From: an uncultured bacterium
GTDB lineage: Bacteria > Patescibacteriota > Minisyncoccia > Phycocordibacterales > CAIRYW01
Length of the DNA stretch: 57,089 bases
Direction: 5' to 3'
NCBI GenBank assembly: GCA_903882905.1
Contig: CAIRYW010000004.1
Span: forward strand, 115,117 to 172,205
Below are positions 12,532 through 47,207 of this stretch, in pieces (positions within the stretch are counted from its first letter, which is position 1; each line of letters opens with the position of its first letter). Made by a program: the position numbers and the translations under genes. The notes beneath the pieces were generated by a model. The model was not told where the DNA came from and did no database searches. It saw only the letters and a list, made by a program, of their open reading frames with translations.

Positions 12532-12720
12532 TTTTTGAACGCAGTGAAAAACTGCGGGAAAGAAGCAAATAATTTTGCTTCTTTCATGGACTCGAAGCCC
12601 GATTGAGATAATTTATGAGGGACGAAATAAATTATCCAATTGCGGGTATTGAAGCTGTAAGCTTCGAGATTCCAAGTCCAGTATGAAAATTTTTAGTCGA
12701 GGAAGAGACTCCAAGTCCTA
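12525..12720 (+). repeat. tRNA-Gln 3' hairpin plus variant tRNA-linked element with T-arm-complementary and T-arm-like segments
   Basis: Hairpin cccgcagttttt/aaaaactgcggg starts inside the acceptor 3' strand. ggactcgaa (rc of T-loop ttcgagtcc) lies at 12588-12596. An 18-bp hairpin spans 12598-12646. Partial tRNA 3' copies are cttcgagattccaagtcc (12662-12679) and gactccaagtcc (12707-12718). Confidence 0.45.
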
Positions 12721-29877: not shown

Positions 29878-29957
29878 GAAAAGATTTTATCAGAAAACTG
29901 GGAAAATAGAAATTGAAATTTATCGATTTATATAGTAATCTTCGTTCGTAAGTATTT

Positions 29958-30044
29958 GCCCAGGTGGCGGAATTGGTAGACGCAATAGACTCAAAATCTA
30001 TCGATCGCAAGGTCATGGGAGTTCGATTCTCCCCTTGGGCACCA
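29958..30044 (+). tRNA. tRNA-Leu (anticodon CAA), CCA encoded
   Basis: Hand-folded. Acceptor gcccagg/cttgggc, anticodon arm ataga-ctCAAaa-tctat, long variable arm, T-arm gggag-ttcgatt-ctccc, ending ACCA. Confidence 0.9.
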
Positions 30045-30180
30045 TAATAAAAAGCTGGTATATTAATACCAGCTTTTTATTATGGTTTCGGGAGAATCGA
30101 AAGACGGAGCACGACTGGCGCGAGTCGGGGTCGCAGAAATTTTCAGCAGAAAATTATCTGTGACCGATTCCCTCCTGGAC
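30041..30180 (+). ncRNA. tRNA-3'-linked structured element, A-type (hairpin + three-way-junction domain)
   Basis: Hairpin 30041-30086. Then gggagaatcgaa / core AGACGGAGCACGACTGGCGCGAGTCGGGGTCGCAG / AT hairpin / CTGTGAC / cgattccc(tcctggac). The core is shared with 3 other copies, with compensatory changes. Confidence 0.5.
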
Positions 30181-30211
30181 TTATGACTCTATTTATATTT
30201 ATATAGTAATA

Positions 30212-31033
30212 ATGAAACCAAAAATTATAGTAATCTGTGGCCCAACAGCTACAGGTAAAAGTGATTACGCCGTAAAACTAGCCAAGAAAATTGGTGGTGA
30301 AATTATTTCCGCAGACTCAAGACAAGTCTACAAAGGTATGGATATTGGAAGTGGAAAAATTACTAAAAAGGAGATGAAAAATGTTCCTCATCATTTACTT
30401 GATGTCGTCTCTCCAAAAACTAGATACACAGTTGCGCAATTTAAGATCGCAGCCGACAAAATAATTGAAGATATTTTAAAAAGAAAAAAAGTACCAATTC
30501 TCTGTGGTGGAACTGGATTTTATATCGATGCTGTTGTAAAAAATATTACCTTTCCTGAAGTCAAACCAAATCAGAAATTAAGAAATGATTTAGAGAAAAA
30601 AAGTTTACTACAACTTATAAAAATGCTGGAAAAATTAGATCCAGAGAGATTAAAAACAATTGATATAGATAATAAAGTCCGTTTAATTCGAGCAATTGAA
30701 ATTGTAAAAGCTTTGGGTAAAGTCCCTAAATTAATATCAAAACCTAAATATAACGCAAAAATAATCTATCTAGATTTTAAAAATGAAATTCTCAAGAAAA
30801 GAATTCATACTCGCCTACTTAAACGCATAAGACAAGGAATGATTAATGAAGTAGAAAATTTACATAAAAATAGAGTTACATGGAAAAGACTTTTTGAATT
30901 TGGGCTTGAATATAGATATGTTTCCTTGTTCCTTCAAAAGAAAATAACAAAGGAAAAAATGATTTTGGAACTAGAAACAGCAATTTGGCACTTTGTAAGA
31001 AGGCAAAGGATGTGGTTTAAGAGGTATAAATAA
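30212..31033 (+). CDS. miaA: tRNA dimethylallyltransferase
   Basis: 273 aa. P-loop GPTATGKS, DSRQVYKGMDIGSGK. Confidence 0.9.
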   Translation: MKPKIIVICGPTATGKSDYAVKLAKKIGGEIISADSRQVYKGMDIGSGKITKKEMKNVPHHLLDVVSPKTRYTVAQFKIAADKIIEDILKRKKVPILCGGTGFYIDAVVKNITFPEVKPNQKLRNDLEKKSLLQLIKMLEKLDPERLKTIDIDNKVRLIRAIEIVKALGKVPKLISKPKYNAKIIYLDFKNEILKKRIHTRLLKRIRQGMINEVENLHKNRVTWKRLFEFGLEYRYVSLFLQKKITKEKMILELETAIWHFVRRQRMWFKRYK

Positions 31034-31034
31034 T

Positions 31035-31109
31035 TGGCGGGCTCGCCGCGACTCGAACGCGGAACCTTCCTTTTGGAGAGGAATGTTTTACCATTGAAAC
31101 TACAAGCCC
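31035..31109 (-). tRNA. tRNA-Trp (anticodon CCA), CCA encoded
   Basis: rc folds as acceptor gggcttg/cgagccc, anticodon arm ttcct-ctCCAaa-aggaa, T-arm ccgcg-ttcgagt-cgcgg. The 3' end lies 1 nt from the miaA stop. Confidence 0.9.
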
Positions 31110-31756
31110 TTTTTAAACAACGATTTAGCTACTGCTAAAAGTTTTTTTGAATATTCACTTTTATAGTATCTTACTCTAACACAACCTCGGTACCCAGCTT
31201 TCGAATATAAACCTTTATTTTTTTTATGAAAGGTTTTATGAAATTGGGATGCAGGTATTCTAAGTGTCTTTGACCAAAATTTCAACTCGTCAACCTCATT
31301 ATGATAAGAATGCAAATGCATACTGGCTCTCCATCCACTATCATCCAAATTAAAAATTTTCTTACATCCTTCAACAAAATAACTAAGAAGTCCTGGATCA
31401 GAATTTGTAAAAGAGATACCAGACATTTCATCCTTCGCTCCTTCGCAATAATAAATTAATGCAATTGCTAATAGTAAAGATTCATTTGAAAATTTATAGT
31501 CTTTGACAAGATTATCAGCAAATAAATTAGTTTCTGTTCTACGTTTTTCTCTTAATTTCGCCATTACCAACCTTCCTTTTTCAAGACCCTTTTTACCTTT
31601 TATTTTCAATAAAAATTTAGCGTCAAAATCTAATTCAACATTCCTAACCCAAAGTGAAGCAGTGCTTTTTGCAATATTTAAACTTTTACTTATTTCTAAA
31701 AGTGATAAACCTTCCGTTCTTAGCTTAATTGCCTTTTGCTTTAAATCAGGCTTCAT
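31100..31756 (-). CDS. HTH protein with possible LAGLIDADG-like endonuclease-type C-terminal domain
   Basis: 218 aa. N-terminal HTH (LSLLEISKSLNIAKSTASLWV). LAIALIYYCEGAKD weakly resembles a LAGLIDADG block. The last 3 codons overlap the 5' end of tRNA-Trp. Confidence 0.35.
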   Translation of the reverse strand: MKPDLKQKAIKLRTEGLSLLEISKSLNIAKSTASLWVRNVELDFDAKFLLKIKGKKGLEKGRLVMAKLREKRRTETNLFADNLVKDYKFSNESLLLAIALIYYCEGAKDEMSGISFTNSDPGLLSYFVEGCKKIFNLDDSGWRASMHLHSYHNEVDELKFWSKTLRIPASQFHKTFHKKNKGLYSKAGYRGCVRVRYYKSEYSKKLLAVAKSLFKKGL

Positions 31757-31837
31757 AACCTATATTATATCATATAGTATTTATCAAAAAAACTAACCCT
31801 TTCGGGCTAGTTTTTAACTTTAAATTTTAGGAAAGAA

Positions 31838-31993
31838 TTATTTCTTAGCTTCCTTGAAGACAACATGCTTTCTAAGCTTTGCAGAATACTTCTTAAGCTC
31901 AACTTTTCTAGTAACAAGCTTCTTATTCTTGCGTGTCCAGTAAGTCTCGCCTGTTCCCTTGTTCTTTAATTGTATTAAACTGTCTTGTGACAT
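31838..31993 (-). CDS. rpmG: 50S ribosomal protein L33
   Basis: Below the ORF-track size cutoff. My translation is MSQDSLIQLKNKGTGETYWTRKNKKLVTRKVELKKYSAKLRKHVVFKEAKK (51 aa), a typical L33. Confidence 0.85.
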   Translation of the reverse strand: MSQDSLIQLKNKGTGETYWTRKNKKLVTRKVELKKYSAKLRKHVVFKEAKK

Positions 31994-32080
31994 AGTTCGG
32001 ATATACTAACATATTGGCTTTTTAAAGGCAAAAGCGTAGCATTTATTCCCAAAATATGTTATTTTTTTGTAAGTATTTTT

Positions 32081-32166
32081 GCGCCGATCGCATAGTGGCA
32101 ATTGCAGCGGGCTGTAAACTCGCCGACCTATGGTCTACGGGGGTTCGAGTCCCTCTCGGCGCACCA
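32081..32166 (+). tRNA. tRNA-Tyr (anticodon GTA), long variable arm, CCA encoded
   Basis: Acceptor gcgccga/tcggcgc, anticodon arm gcggg-ctGTAaa-ctcgc, T-arm ggggg-ttcgagt-ccctc, ACCA. Confidence 0.88.
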
Positions 32167-32342
32167 ATAAAAAATACCGGATTCAGTCCGGTATTTTTTA
32201 TTGCCTGTGCTGTTCGAGAGGGACACGAAAGCCGGAGTGCGACGGCGCGAGGCGGGATCGCGAGATTTTTCAACAGAAAAATACTTGTGACCGAGTCCCT
32301 TAAAAAGGTACTGACCCTGTAAGGGTCGAGATTCCATCTCAG
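32165..32342 (+). ncRNA. tRNA-3'-linked structured element, A-type + B-type domains
   Basis: Hairpin 32165-32203. cgagagggacacgaa (rc of the tRNA-Tyr T-arm). A core AGCCGGAGTGCGACGGCGCGAGGCGGGATCGCGAG...CTTGTGAC-cgagtccct. B part cctt-aaa-aagg GTACTGA ccc-tgtaa-ggg tcgagattccatctc. Confidence 0.5.
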
Positions 32343-32421
32343 AAAATATTTACGGTTAACTTAGTTATAGAGTAGCTTTTACAAACTTGTTTAATGTAAA
32401 AGATAGAGTTTTTAAATACTT

Positions 32422-40030: not shown

Positions 40031-40208
40031 CCCATATTAAAAGCCGTCTTTAAAGACGGCTTTTAATATGGGTTGTGGGAGTCGAAGGTCGGAGCGCGTC
40101 GGCGCGAGACGGGGTCGCGCAAAATTTTAGCAAAAATTTATGCGTGACCGATTCCCTTTTACAAAATATCCAAAAGGTGTACTGATCCTGTAAGGGTCGA
40201 GTTCCCAC
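40031..40208 (+). ncRNA. tRNA-3'-linked structured element, A-type + B-type domains
   Basis: Hairpin 40031-40072. gtgggagtcgaa (exact rc of the tRNA T-loop + 3' T-stem). A core GGTCGGAGCGCGTCGGCGCGAGACGGGGTCGCGC...GCGTGAC-cgattccc. B part cctttt...aaaagg TGTACTGA tcc-tgtaa-ggg tcgagttcccac. Confidence 0.5.
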
Positions 40209-40240
40209 CTGTAATTTGATATAATTAACAAATCAAAATT

Positions 40241-44373: not shown

Positions 44374-44479
44374 AAATGAGATTATAACATAGGGTTACTT
44401 CTTGTTTGGAATAATTGCTTTGATTTATTTAACTTTTCTGGTATATTTTTGTAATTCAATTGAGAATTTGAAGATATAT

Positions 44480-44552
44480 CCACCCATAGCTCAGTCGGTA
44501 GAGCAGCTCCCTTTTAAGGAGAGGGTCGTAGGTTCGATTCCTACTGGGTGGA
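44480..44552 (+). tRNA. tRNA-Lys (anticodon TTT)
   Basis: Acceptor ccaccca/tgggtgg, D-arm gctc-agtcggta-gagc, anticodon loop ctTTTaa, T-arm gtagg-ttcgatt-cctac. No encoded CCA. Confidence 0.85.
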
Positions 44553-44588
44553 CAATTTAACAGCGAAGCTGGTAAATTATCCGCCCAA

Positions 44589-44724
44589 GCAAGTGCTACT
44601 AGCACTTGCGAGTAGGAATCGAACGCCTCCGCTATATTTTTTCAGCAGAAAAAATAGCGAGGCGCGTTTTGAGAAATTTTTTTGACGAAAAAAAATTTCT
44701 CAAAAAGATACTCCTACTGGGTTG
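44589..44724 (+). ncRNA. tRNA-3'-linked structured element, variant (after tRNA-Lys)
   Basis: Hairpin gcaagtgct/agcacttgc. gtaggaatcgaac (exact rc of the tRNA-Lys T-arm). Hairpin gcctccgctatatttttt-cagcag-aaaaaatagcgaggc. Hairpin ttttgagaaattttttt-gacg-aaaaaaaatttctcaaaa. Then ctcctactgggt (copy of the tRNA 3' end). Confidence 0.45.
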
Positions 44725-44761
44725 ATTTGAATTTCGTCGAAAAAATTTGCGATTATGAATC

Positions 44762-44843
44762 GGGCGAGTGGCGGAATTGGTATACGCGCTAGTCTTAGGA
44801 ACTAGTTCCGAAAGGATTGGGGGTTCGAGTCCCCCCTCGCCCA
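44762..44843 (+). tRNA. tRNA-Leu (anticodon TAG)
   Basis: Acceptor gggcgag/ctcgccc, anticodon arm ctagt-ctTAGga-actag, variable arm, T-arm ggggg-ttcgagt-ccccc. No encoded CCA. Confidence 0.88.
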
Positions 44844-45013
44844 CATTTAAAAAAAACGCTTTTGAGCGTTTTTTTTGTGGTCGAGAGAAACTGCCGGGTG
44901 GCAGTTTCGTGGGGAACTCGAAAACCTTTTGAGATTTTTCTAAAAGAAAATCCAAAAGGTGTACTGACCCTGTAGGGGTCGAGATTCCCCCTTCACCTGT
45001 GAACATCGTGAAC
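44841..45013 (+). ncRNA. tRNA-3'-linked structured element, B-type with leader hairpin
   Basis: Hairpin 44841-44880. Leader hairpin gaaactgcc-gggt-ggcagtttc. ggggaactcgaa / ccttttg...caaaagg / TGTACTGA / ccc-tgta-ggg / tcgagattccccc. Tail cacctgtgaacatcgtgaac. Confidence 0.5.
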
Positions 45014-45032
45014 TTTGTAGTAAACTTTTGGT

Positions 45033-46220
45033 ATGAAAGAACCAATGAAATTTGAACTTCCACCAGATGACGATAATGGTCAGGTGGAACAAGTCTCTGA
45101 AGCAAACAGAAGCCATAAAATTGAGACACCAAGCATCGAAGGACATAATAAAATTCAGTATGCAATGCTTACTGAATTGCGAGCCAAATATCCATACGAA
45201 AACTTATTAAGTGAAGAAAGACTTTTTAGAACTAGAAATACAAGTAGATACTATACTCAAATAAATGAAAAATTAGCTCAACAGAGATATGAAAACGCCC
45301 TGTCGTGTGGAGCGGAAATCCATTCTACTTTTATAGAATTTGGTGACAAAATTAAAGATAGCGATTGGATTAATTGTCTTAAAAATTACCCAATGAATGG
45401 TATTAATAGGATTTTCGATAAAAACGAAACTCCTTTTGCTGGTTTCTTTGATGAGAATCGAATTATGGAAGCTGAAAGTCTAATGAGTCCTTATTCATAC
45501 TTCTTAGAGGGTCAATTTGGTAGAGCTGTAGAATTTAAACCAGATATAGTAGCAGTGACACCTAAAAGTGGGATTATGCCATCAATAATCGTAAAACAGT
45601 TTTTCAGGACATATTCTGAGGAAACTGGAGATAATATAGATCCACAGTTTTTTATACCTCAAAGTAAATTTTTTAGTGGTTTCAAGAGTACAGATAATGG
45701 GAGAAAATATATCAAAGATATTCTCTCAACAAATCTAGGTTCTATAGAAGATTATCAGAAATATCTGGAAAATAGCGGAGAGATTTTGACTGGTAAATCA
45801 GTATCAGAAAAAGATCTAGCTAAAATCCAAAGATATAAGAAAACTTTTGAAGCTATTAAAAATATTATTATTTCCCATACAGAAGAAAAAGAAATAAAAG
45901 TATTAGTTTTTGACGAAGTAATTAATGAAGGAAAATCCTCAAAAGGAATGCAAGAACTTTTTGAAGTAATACTAGATATTTTAAAAGAAGGTGGTGAAAT
46001 CCCCAAAGACACCGTCATCAAGTCTCAAGTTTTAACAATGGGAAGTTTAGGAACTTCTTATAATTCTCCTGGTAAGGATTTTATTATGGACGAAGGTGGA
46101 AATAACTACAATTACGGATTAAAAGGTAGTTCAAAAGCAAAACATCATTTGACGCGCAAAGTATTTAAAATAATAGGCGAGAGTTTGGCAAAAGAGTTTA
46201 TTCTTGTCAGAAATTCTTAA
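45033..46220 (+). CDS. Hypothetical 395-aa protein with weak phosphoribosyltransferase-like motif
   Basis: Long ORF starting 20 nt after the element. KVLVFDEVINEGKSS loosely resembles the PRTase PRPP loop. Otherwise unknown. Confidence 0.55.
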   Translation: MKEPMKFELPPDDDNGQVEQVSEANRSHKIETPSIEGHNKIQYAMLTELRAKYPYENLLSEERLFRTRNTSRYYTQINEKLAQQRYENALSCGAEIHSTFIEFGDKIKDSDWINCLKNYPMNGINRIFDKNETPFAGFFDENRIMEAESLMSPYSYFLEGQFGRAVEFKPDIVAVTPKSGIMPSIIVKQFFRTYSEETGDNIDPQFFIPQSKFFSGFKSTDNGRKYIKDILSTNLGSIEDYQKYLENSGEILTGKSVSEKDLAKIQRYKKTFEAIKNIIISHTEEKEIKVLVFDEVINEGKSSKGMQELFEVILDILKEGGEIPKDTVIKSQVLTMGSLGTSYNSPGKDFIMDEGGNNYNYGLKGSSKAKHHLTRKVFKIIGESLAKEFILVRNS

Positions 46221-46311
46221 TCAGTATGTATAGCTCTTCAATAGCCTTTTTGATTTAATCTCCCTCATTTACAATTCAACACCTCCAACTCCCCTATACT
46301 TATTTTCACAT

Positions 46312-46540
46312 CATCAGCATACCTAACTAGTTCTGAAAGCCAGCCCATCTGTCCACATTAAAAAAACACCCTCTGGGTGTTTTTTGTTGGGCGGGGAGAA
46401 ACTGCTGGATGGCAGTTTCGCGGGGGACTCGAAAACCTTTTGAGATTATTTTGTGAGTTAGCGAAACAAAATATCCAAAAGGTGTACTGCTCCTGTAAGG
46501 AGAGAGATTTTCCTCTCGCCCACCTGTGAACGTTGTGAAT
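46312..46540 (+). ncRNA. Decayed tRNA-Leu-like 3' remnant (R1) + hairpin + B-type structured element
   Basis: R1 shares aactagttcYgaaag and gYccaca with tRNA-Leu(TAG). Hairpin 46353-46390. Leader hairpin gaaactgc/gcagtttc. gggggactcgaa (exact rc of the tRNA-Leu(TAG) T-arm). ccttttg...caaaagg, TGTACTG, ctcc-tgtaa-ggag, then ttttcctctcgcccac and cacctgtgaacgttgtgaa. Confidence 0.5.
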
Positions 46541-46631
46541 GTTATTACGATATAACAGACTACTTGACTAGAAATAATTTTAGTGTTTATATTGAACCTG
46601 AACAATTTACCTCTTTGAAAGGTCTAATTTT

Positions 46632-46805
46632 ATGACACAACACATCGTAATTGGAATACTCCTTTGTTGGACTATTCTGGGTTTAATCATTGACCCTCTG
46701 TTGCTTGGCAGTTCCTGGATAACTTCTTCACGGACGCGCGAAGTTGCAGTGCTAATACTTGGAGGACCAGTAACTTGGTTCCTTGCATTTGCTCAATGGT
46801 TTTAA
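46632..46805 (+). CDS. Small membrane protein (57 aa)
   Basis: Below the ORF-track cutoff. My translation is MTQHIVIGILLCWTILGLIIDPLLLGSSWITSSRTREVAVLILGGPVTWFLAFAQWF, with two hydrophobic helices. gaaagg lies 12 nt upstream. Confidence 0.4.
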   Translation: MTQHIVIGILLCWTILGLIIDPLLLGSSWITSSRTREVAVLILGGPVTWFLAFAQWF

Positions 46806-46908
46806 AACAAGACAACTCTAAAGTTCGACCTCGTTGCTTACGCGATGAGGTCATTTTTATAACAGACAAGTTTTAATATTTTCTAAATCTTTTATACTAA
46901 TTCTTACC

Positions 46909-47167
46909 GCATCAGCATACCCAACAAGTTCTGAAAGCCAGCCCAACGGTCCACATTAAAAAAACACCCTCTGGGTGTTTTTTTTGTGAGCGAGGAGAAA
47001 GCTCTGGGAGAGCTTTCGTGGGGACTCGAAGGCCGGAGCGCGACGGCGCGAGGCGGGCGAGTAGCAACGAGTGTCGGAGTAGGCTTCGCAGAAATTTTTA
47101 CCACAAGGGTACTTCTGTTTTTTGTAAACAAAAACAAGTCGCGCAAAAAATTATCTGTGACCGAGTC
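46909..47167 (+). ncRNA. Decayed tRNA-Leu-like 3' remnant (R2) + hairpin + A-type structured element (expanded)
   Basis: R2 is about 90% identical to R1 over about 45 nt. Hairpin 46951-46988. Leader hairpin gaaagctc/gagctttc (compensated relative to the other copies). ggggactcgaa + GGCCGGAGCGCGACGGCGCGAGGCGGG core with extra internal hairpins, ending CTGTGAC-cgagtc. Confidence 0.5.
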
Positions 47168-47207
47168 TTTTTTTGCAAAATTTATTTAGGACTGGATTAT
47201 TTTTCAC

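Follow-up and report, generated by a model that had tools for sequence, protein, structure and literature searches.

A multi-copy structured RNA family of Patescibacteria with a conserved three-way-junction core and, in many copies, a scaffold matching the adjacent tRNA

Introduction

Among published RNAs encoded beside transfer RNA (tRNA) genes, the theta ribozymes are the closest to the element described here, a B-type domain located at positions 44881–45013 of a 57,089-nucleotide (nt) stretch of DNA from an uncultured bacterium of the Patescibacteriota (GenBank assembly GCA_903882905.1, contig CAIRYW010000004.1, positions 115,117 to 172,205, forward strand). We refer to this whole stretch as the window. 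Theta ribozymes are numerous small structured RNAs that lie directly downstream of tRNAs of many identities, with part of them not associated with tRNAs (PMC10879173). They adopt the double pseudoknot of the hepatitis delta virus (HDV) ribozyme with a catalytic cytosine in J4/2, cleave within 5 nt of the tRNA end, and occur almost only in gut Caudoviricetes (PMC10879173). The B domain, in contrast, is a three-way junction that lies past the trailer hairpin of the tRNA, occurs on cellular Patescibacteria-like contigs, and is embedded in sequence templated by the tRNA.

Several other described systems bear a partial likeness to the B domain. The tRNA mimics (the tRNA-like domain of transfer-messenger RNA (tmRNA), YrlA Y RNA, viral 3′ tRNA-like structures, and mascRNA) resemble the predicted B unit in having an acceptor-like helix on a T-stem-like helix with the rest of the body replaced, and likewise in lying near, and on the same strand as, genuine tRNA genes. 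The B unit differs from these in that its T-loop is replaced by a three-way junction, its helices copy a neighboring tRNA of any identity, its acceptor helix is dispensable, and its core also occurs outside a tRNA-like context; it has no match to the tmRNA or Y RNA models of Rfam. Hammerhead ribozymes carry CUGANGA between stems I and II, GAAA between stems II and III, and a single H at the cleavage site. The B domain shares with hammerhead and twister ribozymes a compact multi-helix junction with invariant joints, circular permutation, a lack of gene association, and the co-occurrence of two unrelated cores, but it has neither CUGANGA nor GAAA, its joint lengths do not fit, and it has no Rfam match to them. 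Pneumococcal BOX, Neisseria Correia, REP/BIME, and ERIC elements are near-identical palindromes within a genome and are confined to narrow taxa. Like these, B copies are multi-copy, modular, non-coding, and intergenic beside highly expressed genes; unlike these, they diverge by compensatory changes, show invariant unpaired nucleotides even between distant contigs, and have the adjacent tRNA as their template. Lastly, integration into tRNA genes, reportedly described by Williams in 2002, leaves an intact tRNA, the insert, and a displaced partial 3′ copy starting in the T-loop. Compared with such sites, the B “insert” is 100–200 nt in length, has no integrase, and contains an inverted copy of the tRNA segment and a conserved RNA fold.

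We know of no described RNA family in which a scaffold is copied in both orientations from the preceding tRNA. The combination of a covarying junction core that has invariant joints, natural permutation, interchangeable cores, and a scaffold templated both ways is new, having no described match in the open literature or in Rfam 15; full-text searches of the open literature, including searches with sequence strings, did not find a description of the motif. Patescibacteria account for a large share of bacterial diversity, and to our knowledge almost nothing is known about their non-coding RNAs.

Results and discussion

The B core is a conserved three-way junction

Patescibacteria encode an undescribed family of structured RNAs with multiple copies, and the B domain forms its conserved core, a three-way junction. 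This core is under selection at the RNA level, and it occurs without the tRNA-derived scaffold as well as within it. An earlier reading of the window (the sequence-only reading) had claimed four copies. All four are present, and a 22-nt degenerate pattern (AAGGTRTACTGNYCCTGTARGG) spanning the 3′ strand of helix P2, the joint, and helix P3 matched the window at exactly those places (4 matches versus 0 expected from shuffles). A covariance model (R1), built from an alignment of 108 cores (A1), recovered the four copies and added a fifth behind tRNA-Gln, which was outside the seed alignment; there was no further match in the window at E < 0.01. All five copies are on the plus strand. The unit at 44881–45013, whose core spans 44911–44991, and the other four copies are laid out as follows, with conservation and pairing taken from an alignment of 80 R1 hits (A2).

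44762–44844, plus strand: tRNA-Leu(TAG), which templates the 44881–45013 unit (ARAGORN; Rfam tRNA, 60.7 bits)
44849–44876, plus strand: terminator-like trailer hairpin composed of an A-run, CGC, a 6-nt loop, GCG, and a T-run (read from the sequence)
44877–44885, plus strand: anti-acceptor strand GTGGTCGAG, matching the reverse complement of the last 9 nt of the tRNA at 8 of 9 positions; 5′ strand of the outer helix
44887–44908, plus strand: leader hairpin of 9 base pairs (bp), GAAACTGCC, loop GGGT, GGCAGTTTC (sequence and fold)
44911–44920, plus strand: P1 5′ strand GGGGAACTCG, reverse complement of the T-loop and T-stem 3′ strand of the tRNA (also in the fold)
44921–44924, plus strand: J1/2, A-rich joint AAAA (A2 columns 11–12 are A in ~90%)
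44925–44959, plus strand: P2, hairpin of variable length with a CCUUUUG/CAAAAGG base (88% paired; 8 of 8 modeled pairs covary)
44960–44966, plus strand: J2/3, joint TGTACTG (U-R-U-A-C-W-G in the family; conserved in A2)
44967–44979, plus strand: P3, 4-bp ACCC/GGGT with loop TGTAG (UGUAA in the family; 97% paired, 4 of 4 pairs covary)
44980–44990, plus strand: P1 3′ strand CGAGATTCCCC, direct copy of the 3′ part of the T-loop and the T-stem 3′ strand (sequence; fold)
44991–44997, plus strand: acceptor-like 3′ strand CTTCACC, pairing with 44879–44885 (minimum-energy fold)
44994–45012, plus strand: tail CACCTGTGAACATCGTGAA, also at 46521–46539
46422–46514, plus strand: B copy with leader hairpin and acceptor-like helix (R1, 83.4 bits)
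40110–40209, plus strand: B copy (core 40153–40209) fused to an A-type core, behind tRNA-Cys and tRNA-Leu(TAA) (R1, 41.2 bits)
32253–32338, plus strand: B copy (core 32296–32338, minimal P2) fused to an A-type core, behind tRNA-Tyr (R1, 37.8 bits)
12585–12676, plus strand: fifth, diverged B copy behind tRNA-Gln, with joint UAUUG and P3 AAGC/GCUU (R1, 36.8 bits)

The order of parts proposed by the sequence-only reading was confirmed, namely a 5′ strand complementary to the T-arm, a CCUU.../...AAGG helix, a UGUACUG joint, a 4-bp hairpin with a UGUAA or UGUAG loop, and CGAG(A)UUCCC. As had been claimed, the P1 5′ strand of every copy corresponds, in reverse complement, to the T-loop and T-stem 3′ strand of the upstream tRNA. 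The element’s 3′ strand, in turn, repeats in direct orientation the T-loop and T-stem 3′ strand of that tRNA and part of its acceptor 3′ strand, so that the 5′ strand is complementary both to the 3′ strand of the element and to the tRNA itself. P2 ranges, as described, from CCTT-AAA-AAGG (32297) to a long extension (46437–46483). Covariation of P3 was likewise found among the window copies (ACCC/GGGU, AUCC/GGGU with a U·G pair, and CUCC/GGAG). To these the tRNA-Gln copy adds its AAGC/GCUU, along with a P2 base of CCCGAUUG/CAAUUGCGGG, and has thus diverged from the other copies by compensated changes. The helices of all five copies differ in this way, and the copies are not recent.

A leader hairpin had been reported for three copies. 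The helices are indeed compensated, the one at 44887–44908 relative to those at 46398–46418 and 46995–47017, but the last of these (GAGAAAGCTC...GAGCTTTC) heads an A-type copy and not a B copy. The flanks of the leader hairpin (GAG...CG) are homologous to the capped P1 hairpin of permuted copies. The claimed tail sequence, CACCTGTGAACNTYGTGAA, was found twice, at 44994 and 46521 (2 matches versus 0.02 expected). An outer acceptor-like helix formed by 44879–44885 and 44991–44997 encloses the 44881–45013 unit, and in isolation the segment 44879–45000 folds as proposed in the minimum-energy prediction (−53.2 kcal/mol, z = −4.8). An intact tRNA is missing upstream of the copy at 46422, where a degenerate tRNA-Leu(TAG)-like 3′ end and a hairpin are found instead. 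The trailer hairpin at 44849–44876 was not called by a simple terminator scan because its T-run sits within the stem.

The sequence-only reading had named two checks, namely further copies elsewhere and retention of the helices in them. R1 yielded 128 matches in 100 fetched loci, about 30 of which are outside the pattern, and their alignment reveals compensatory changes. Most A2 sequences were found by the pattern and A2 is fitted to the model, so the conservation of core sequence is partly ascertained; this does not affect covariation at positions left free by the pattern or in pattern-independent hits. In A1, P3 is 98.8% paired, and four to five different Watson-Crick combinations are seen at each of its two outer pairs, which are free in the pattern; the pattern likewise leaves open the P2 5′ strand, which is paired throughout. 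In A2, all 16 modeled pairs vary on both sides, and 84.6% of cells are paired, as compared to 66% for shuffled alignments (0 of 500 shuffles as high) and 38–52% with slid partner columns. Pairing is weakest in the proximal four pairs of P1 (65%). Pattern-independent compensations occur at fixed positions in P3 (CCGC/GCGG, ACCG/CGGU, AACA/UGUU, AAUC/GAUU, and UUUC/GAAA) and at the base of P2 (GGUU/AACC, CUCAUUG/CAAUGAG, and CCCAUUCG/CGAAUGGG). Covariation in independent sequences thus supports a three-way junction consisting of P1, a variable P2, a conserved joint, and a small P3 with a UGUAA loop.

Unpaired positions are also conserved. The joint U-R-U-A-C-W-G is nearly invariant in A2 (A118, 100%; C119, 99%; U117, 98%; G121, 98%), and the UGUAA loop of P3 is 94–100% conserved per position. 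The joint is 7 nt in length, the A-rich strand 4–7 nt, and J3/1 0–4 nt, whereas P2 is 23–98 nt across the family. A pseudoknot between loop GUA and joint UAC was considered and rejected, as there are few natural variants and no covariation. Tetraloops containing UGUA or UAC recur at the tip of P2. An extra 3-bp hairpin occurs in the P1 3′ strand (CGAUAAG - NNN UACU NNN - GGU) of many tRNA-linked copies, including those of loci L152, L087, and L099, and also behind an A core in L007; its stem covaries (GUG/CAC, GGC/GCC, GCG/CGC, and ACG/CGU).

The 22-nt core occurs on at least 120 (>120) metagenome contigs and on only 1 of 2.9 million viral contigs. One metagenome locus (L154, 69% G+C) has a pattern match lacking P2 and tRNA context that looks like chance, which indicates that the pattern set contains a few false positives. 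A search of the window with Rfam 15 (4227 models) returned only tRNAs at the gathering score and nothing overlapping B copies at E ≤ 10 within 44400–46700 or 29900–32400. There was likewise no Rfam 15 match at E ≤ 1 in 17 metagenome loci that carry B.

Linkage to tRNA genes and a templated scaffold

The claimed linkage to tRNA genes is real and directional. A same-strand tRNA ends at most 250 nt upstream in 50 of 133 pattern matches, and in 44 of these it ends 101–142 nt from the joint. The linked tRNAs span ~18 amino acid identities, and the orientation of the element follows that of the upstream tRNA in every linked case. Linkage does not hold as a universal rule, as permuted and plain forms lack a P1 derived from the T-arm.

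Linked copies have the same layout: the tRNA, a terminator-like hairpin with A- and U-runs (in most copies), the anti-acceptor strand, a 9-bp hairpin, the anti-T strand, the core, and the direct copy. The anti-acceptor strand matches the reverse complement of the last 9 nt of the tRNA at 7 or more of 9 positions in 37 of 49 linked copies, 20 of which are perfect (9 of 9). The anti-T strand, the reverse complement of the T-loop and T-stem 3′ strand, matches at 12 of 12 positions in 22 of 44 copies and at 10 or more of 12 in 37 of 44. The downstream direct copy contains the T-loop and T-stem 3′ strand, and in about one-third of linked copies the whole acceptor 3′ strand. Direct repeats of the 3′ part of the tRNA are 9–22 nt in many copies, 31 nt in L026, and ~60 nt in L007.

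Duplex stability is higher for cognate than for non-cognate pairs (−20.3 and −13.5 versus −13.1 and −10.8 kcal/mol). Where CCA is not encoded (L152), the anti-acceptor strand complements the trailer of the gene and not CCA, and hence matches the gene or precursor rather than the mature tRNA. The first strand of the element begins 22–46 nt past the tRNA end, beyond the hairpin. When the tRNA is included in the prediction, the optimum is a strand-swapped fold, meaning that the anti strands could, on paper, compete for the 3′ half of the tRNA. The isolated unit, as modeled, would be a tRNA-shaped RNA, consisting of an acceptor-like helix, one long arm, and a T-stem-like helix, with the T-loop replaced by the P1-P2-P3 junction. 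This combination of an acceptor-like and a T-stem-like helix is present in the predicted fold of 44879–45000 and in the roughly one-third of linked copies that contain the entire acceptor strand; it is absent from the other linked copies and from permuted and plain forms.

A different trailer, CCCGCAG-UUUUUGAACGCAGUGAAAAA-CUGCGGG, is located behind tRNA-Gln of the window (12533–12565) and behind tRNA-Trp of L067 (12102–12173, minus strand), in two distant genomes. It forms a 12-bp hairpin that includes the last 7 nt of the tRNA and replaces the terminator-like hairpin.

Permuted and plain copies

In the permuted form (GGUGAG - hairpin - CGCAAGACC), a loop caps P1 and the break in the chain falls between P3 and P1, which constitutes a circular permutation. 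Several permuted copies are preceded by a 5′ tRNA fragment and followed by an intact tRNA (L083, L195, and L160). The plain form is a junction closed by its flanks, and it occurs directly past the rplK stop codon, ahead of the terminator, at six to seven divergent loci.

In rplK (L11) loci with a B copy (L092, L111, L131, L140, L167, and L190), no rplA is located behind rplK. An L1 gene lies beside rplK in only 5 of ~37 Paceibacteria-like rplK loci. Ribosomal protein L1 has reportedly been lost in part of this group, and the rplK loci are consistent with such a loss.

Proposed mechanism and alternative explanations

The account we favor, tentatively and at somewhat less than even odds, is that the family represents a new class of structured RNAs that are templated by tRNAs and act at the level of RNA through a composite mechanism. 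The unit would be transcribed by read-through or jointly with the tRNA, and the stable junction would nucleate P1. The anti-T and anti-acceptor strands would then be locked on the 3′ strand of the element itself instead of invading the 3′ half of the tRNA. The invariant joint U-R-U-A-C-W-G and the UGUAA loop would constitute the functional site, which could bind a partner or be catalytic. Because its helices are tRNA-like, the unit is a plausible substrate for tRNA end processing, which could release a stable RNA of ~120 nt. As for origin, the scaffold (a segment X, inverted X, and X) probably arose in the DNA, by templated duplication centered on the trailer hairpin and on the palindromic T-loop sequence TCGA, and A-type, B-type, and other cores may be interchangeable inserts at the T-loop point.

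A number of observations weigh against this mechanism. The match to the tRNA is closer in the anti strands than in the downstream copy, so DNA-level templating or a direct interaction between the anti strands and the tRNA fits as well as locking. A terminator-like hairpin usually lies between the tRNA and the element, and the RNA may therefore be made rarely; we infer the transcribed strand and co-transcription from orientation alone. The full acceptor strand is present in only about one-third of linked copies, which makes processing by tRNA enzymes a weaker proposition. Some 60% of copies have no tRNA link, being permuted or plain in the rplK 3′ untranslated region (UTR), and the function of the core therefore cannot depend on the tRNA scaffold. 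The excess of G·U over A·C in P2 and P3 is modest (25 versus 16). Lastly, the distribution is patchy, with one clear B copy (L067) in 1.25 Mb around miaA from 80 related species, a pattern also typical of selfish repeats.

Indeed, the strongest competing explanation, though an unlikely one in our estimate, is a selfish, mobile, non-autonomous element that targets tRNA genes, either by inserting at the T-loop and duplicating the 3′ part of the tRNA or by integrating through a small circular or RNA intermediate, with the fold serving its own propagation. Partial tRNA copies on either side (3′ fragments after linked copies and 5′ fragments before permuted ones), tandem arrays and duplicated units (L114; window 46350–47170), and circularly permuted connectivity are in keeping with mobility. 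So is a lineage-specific expansion, in that 57 kb of the window hold five B and four A copies, as compared to the single clear B copy among relatives. The window also has an insertion at the junction of tRNA-Leu(CAA) and miaA, which spans just 8–14 nt in L002, L004, and L006. However, genes for an integrase, transposase, or reverse transcriptase neither recur around 130 copies nor lie next to those of the window, and the copies within one genome are old, differing by compensated changes rather than being near-identical. Terminal inverted repeats and target-site duplications of known types were not seen, although the search for target-site duplications was not exhaustive, and the motif was found in one viral contig only. 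The fit of the anti-acceptor strand to the trailer rather than to CCA (L152) argues against retroelement-like priming by mature tRNA. The direct repeat of the tRNA 3′ part that flanks the insert is a feature of integrative elements, but the inserts are 100–200 nt without an open reading frame (ORF) and have housekeeping neighbors and no recombinase.

An extension of the RNA-level reading, which we consider improbable, is a tRNA-specific RNA system in which the anti-T and anti-acceptor strands of each unit are coupled to its junction module (A or B), this being either a new ribozyme or a binding module resembling the tRNA elbow. The unit would switch between a tRNA-shaped fold locked on itself and a fold that captures the 3′ half of the cognate precursor. 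If true, this would amount to cis control, quality control, or processing of single tRNAs in minimal-genome bacteria with reduced ribosomes; many of these lineages lack L1, and in several a B copy lies directly behind rplK.

It is slightly more doubtful still, by analogy to theta ribozymes at tRNAs, that the B and A cores are new small self-cleaving ribozymes that process read-through transcripts behind tRNA and highly expressed genes. Such ribozymes would account for the many copies per genome with no gene association, the occurrence of two unrelated cores in the same contexts and in tandem, the circular permutation, and the compact junction with invariant unpaired nucleotides, and ribozymes at tRNA 3′ ends have a precedent (PMC10879173). 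The cores nevertheless match no Rfam ribozyme family. The joints (7-nt U-R-U-A-C-W-G, A-rich J1/2, and J3/1 of 0–4 nt) misfit the hammerhead core, an HDV-like nested pseudoknot cannot be drawn, no cleavage site can be inferred, and the element starts 30–60 nt past the tRNA end rather than at it.

A purely DNA-level by-product without RNA function, either relics of att-like recombination or template-switch palindromes at tRNA terminators, is very improbable. Perfect palindromes do extend from the acceptor strand of the tRNA across the trailer hairpin to the complement of that strand, the TCGA core of the T-loop is palindromic, and the X, inverted X, and X pattern with long direct repeats containing the trailer (~60 nt in L007 and 31 nt in L026) has the form of fold-back or template-switch products. 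This explains the scaffold but not the B core, whose invariant unpaired positions and P2 and P3 compensations extend across very divergent contigs, and which also occurs without a tRNA-derived flank.

The remaining idea, carried over from the sequence-only reading, that the element is a riboswitch-like cis-regulatory 5′ leader (5′ UTR) of the ORFs at 45033, 46632, 40241, and 30212 is essentially refuted as a general role: window copies do lie 30–120 nt upstream of plus-strand ORFs and pair a conserved core with a variable P2, as in many aptamers, but the nearest downstream ORF is convergent (on the opposite strand) in 33 of 86 cases, no protein family recurs among 82 downstream ORFs, whose neighborhoods consist of housekeeping genes, six to seven copies lie between the rplK stop codon and the terminator, orientation tracks the upstream tRNA in all linked cases, and a promoter-like site separates the 46422 copy from ORF 46632.

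Known classes of RNA and mobile DNA were compared with the B domain individually and rejected. For HDV-like and theta ribozymes, the fold supported by covariation is an unknotted three-way junction, and attempts to fit A and B by eye to the HDV strand order failed; the theta rule of cleavage within ~5 nt of the tRNA 3′ end does not apply to an element that begins beyond a hairpin and has its joint 101–142 nt away. Hammerhead ribozymes differ in joint sequences and their order around the junction and gave no Rfam match, and twister, pistol, and hatchet ribozymes do not fit in strand order or joint sequences and gave none either. A primer-binding site of the retroviral type does not agree with the complementarity of the anti-acceptor strand to the trailer where CCA is unencoded (L152). 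Bridge or seek RNAs and TnpB or IscB guide RNAs were discounted, as no recombinase or nuclease lies nearby and the “guide-like” strands complement each other rather than adjacent target halves. A retron was dismissed because no reverse transcriptase is present, and a repeat of the miniature inverted-repeat transposable element (MITE) or REP type because window copies differ throughout P2 and P3 by compensated changes.

The family would be an abundant and strongly conserved class of RNA, and it poses a question on the biology of tRNA-linked RNAs that can be tested. Should the cores be catalytic, they would represent new classes of small ribozymes; if they bind a partner or a tRNA precursor, they would provide a layer of per-tRNA control or maturation under a reduced translation machinery; and if they are selfish, they would be the first small, protein-less, structured repeats in bacteria that target tRNA genes. 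The elements also give rise to tRNA-like fragments that confuse the annotation of tRNAs and terminators in metagenome-assembled genomes.

Sister cores on the same scaffold

The window contains 8 tRNAs (ARAGORN and Rfam), and 6 of its 7 tRNA transcription units have a member of the family at their end. The modules behind these units are as follows.

tRNA-Gln: B
tRNA-Leu(CAA): A
tRNA-Tyr: A and B
tRNA-Cys and tRNA-Leu(TAA): A and B
tRNA at 44480: two-hairpin core
tRNA-Leu(TAG): B

Two more units of the Leu(TAG) type are present without an intact tRNA. The segment 46995–47170 (plus strand) is an A-type copy (~47018–47170) with a leader hairpin on the same tRNA-Leu(TAG)-type scaffold; it is a sister module and not B. 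Across the window and relatives, A, A and B, B, two-hairpin, and “empty” hairpin cores occur. Behind orthologous tRNAs the relatives have A-type, B-type, other, or “empty” versions, with direct repeats of up to ~60 nt that include the trailer hairpin; the scaffold (segment, inverted segment, segment) thus holds different cores or none. At the Tyr and Leu(TAA) loci, the arrangement of strands makes it plausible that the A and B domains compete for one 5′ strand, as the sequence-only reading had suggested.

The four A-type cores of the window are located at 30085–30175, 32200–32295, 40070–40155, and 47018–47170. As aligned by eye from 12 sequences, the A core consists of P1, AAAG, a 3-bp GNC/GNC helix with a covarying middle pair, a GGAG/CGA internal loop, a variable hairpin Pa, GGG, a long hairpin Pb with apical UUUUCAGCAGAAAA, and P1. 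It has no Rfam match and looks like a second undescribed core on the same scaffold. Behind the tRNA at 44480–44553, a further “C-type” module (44617–44725) has a T-arm complement, two hairpins, and a copy of the 3′ end (CTCCTACTGGGT).

Gene content of the window

The 57-kb window is 35% G+C and encodes ParB, MiaA, ClpB, a Mur ligase, a FemAB-family protein, a D-Ala-D-Ala carboxypeptidase, IF-2, aconitase, and type IV pilin-like proteins. In a bacterial set with one genome per species, the closest homologs of its MiaA are all from Patescibacteria (Nomurabacteria, Paceibacteria, and similar groups), with identities of at most 64%. The cellular gene content and these relatives identify the window as a piece of chromosome from a poorly sampled Patescibacterium and not a phage. 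A phage origin with a suppressor tRNA was considered and rejected on the same grounds. The tRNA at 44480–44553 is labeled tRNA-Stop (tta) by ARAGORN, while Infernal alignment places its anticodon loop at CUUUUAA, as in tRNA-Lys(UUU); it has one G·A at the top of the anticodon stem, and its T-arm is identical to that of tRNA-Lys(ttt) of L085. It is most likely tRNA-Lys(UUU), and a suppressor role is improbable.

A 395-amino acid ORF (45033–46220) lies between two B copies and has no Pfam domain and no homolog except itself among 5.8 billion proteins. The only other contig with this ORF is from the same strain (99.97% identity over 3.3 kb), which makes insertion polymorphism uninformative there. 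A 218-amino acid ORF beside tRNA-Trp (31100–31756, minus strand) has weak matches to transposase helix-turn-helix (HTH) domains (HTH_23, 9e-5; Sleeping Beauty HTH, 1e-3); a catalytic domain was not detected, and this is the sole hint of a mobility-related gene near the elements. The promoter-like site between the B copy at 46422–46514 and the short ORF at 46632 is located at 46564–46593 and resembles a sigma-70 promoter (TTGACT, an 18-nt spacer, and TATATT).

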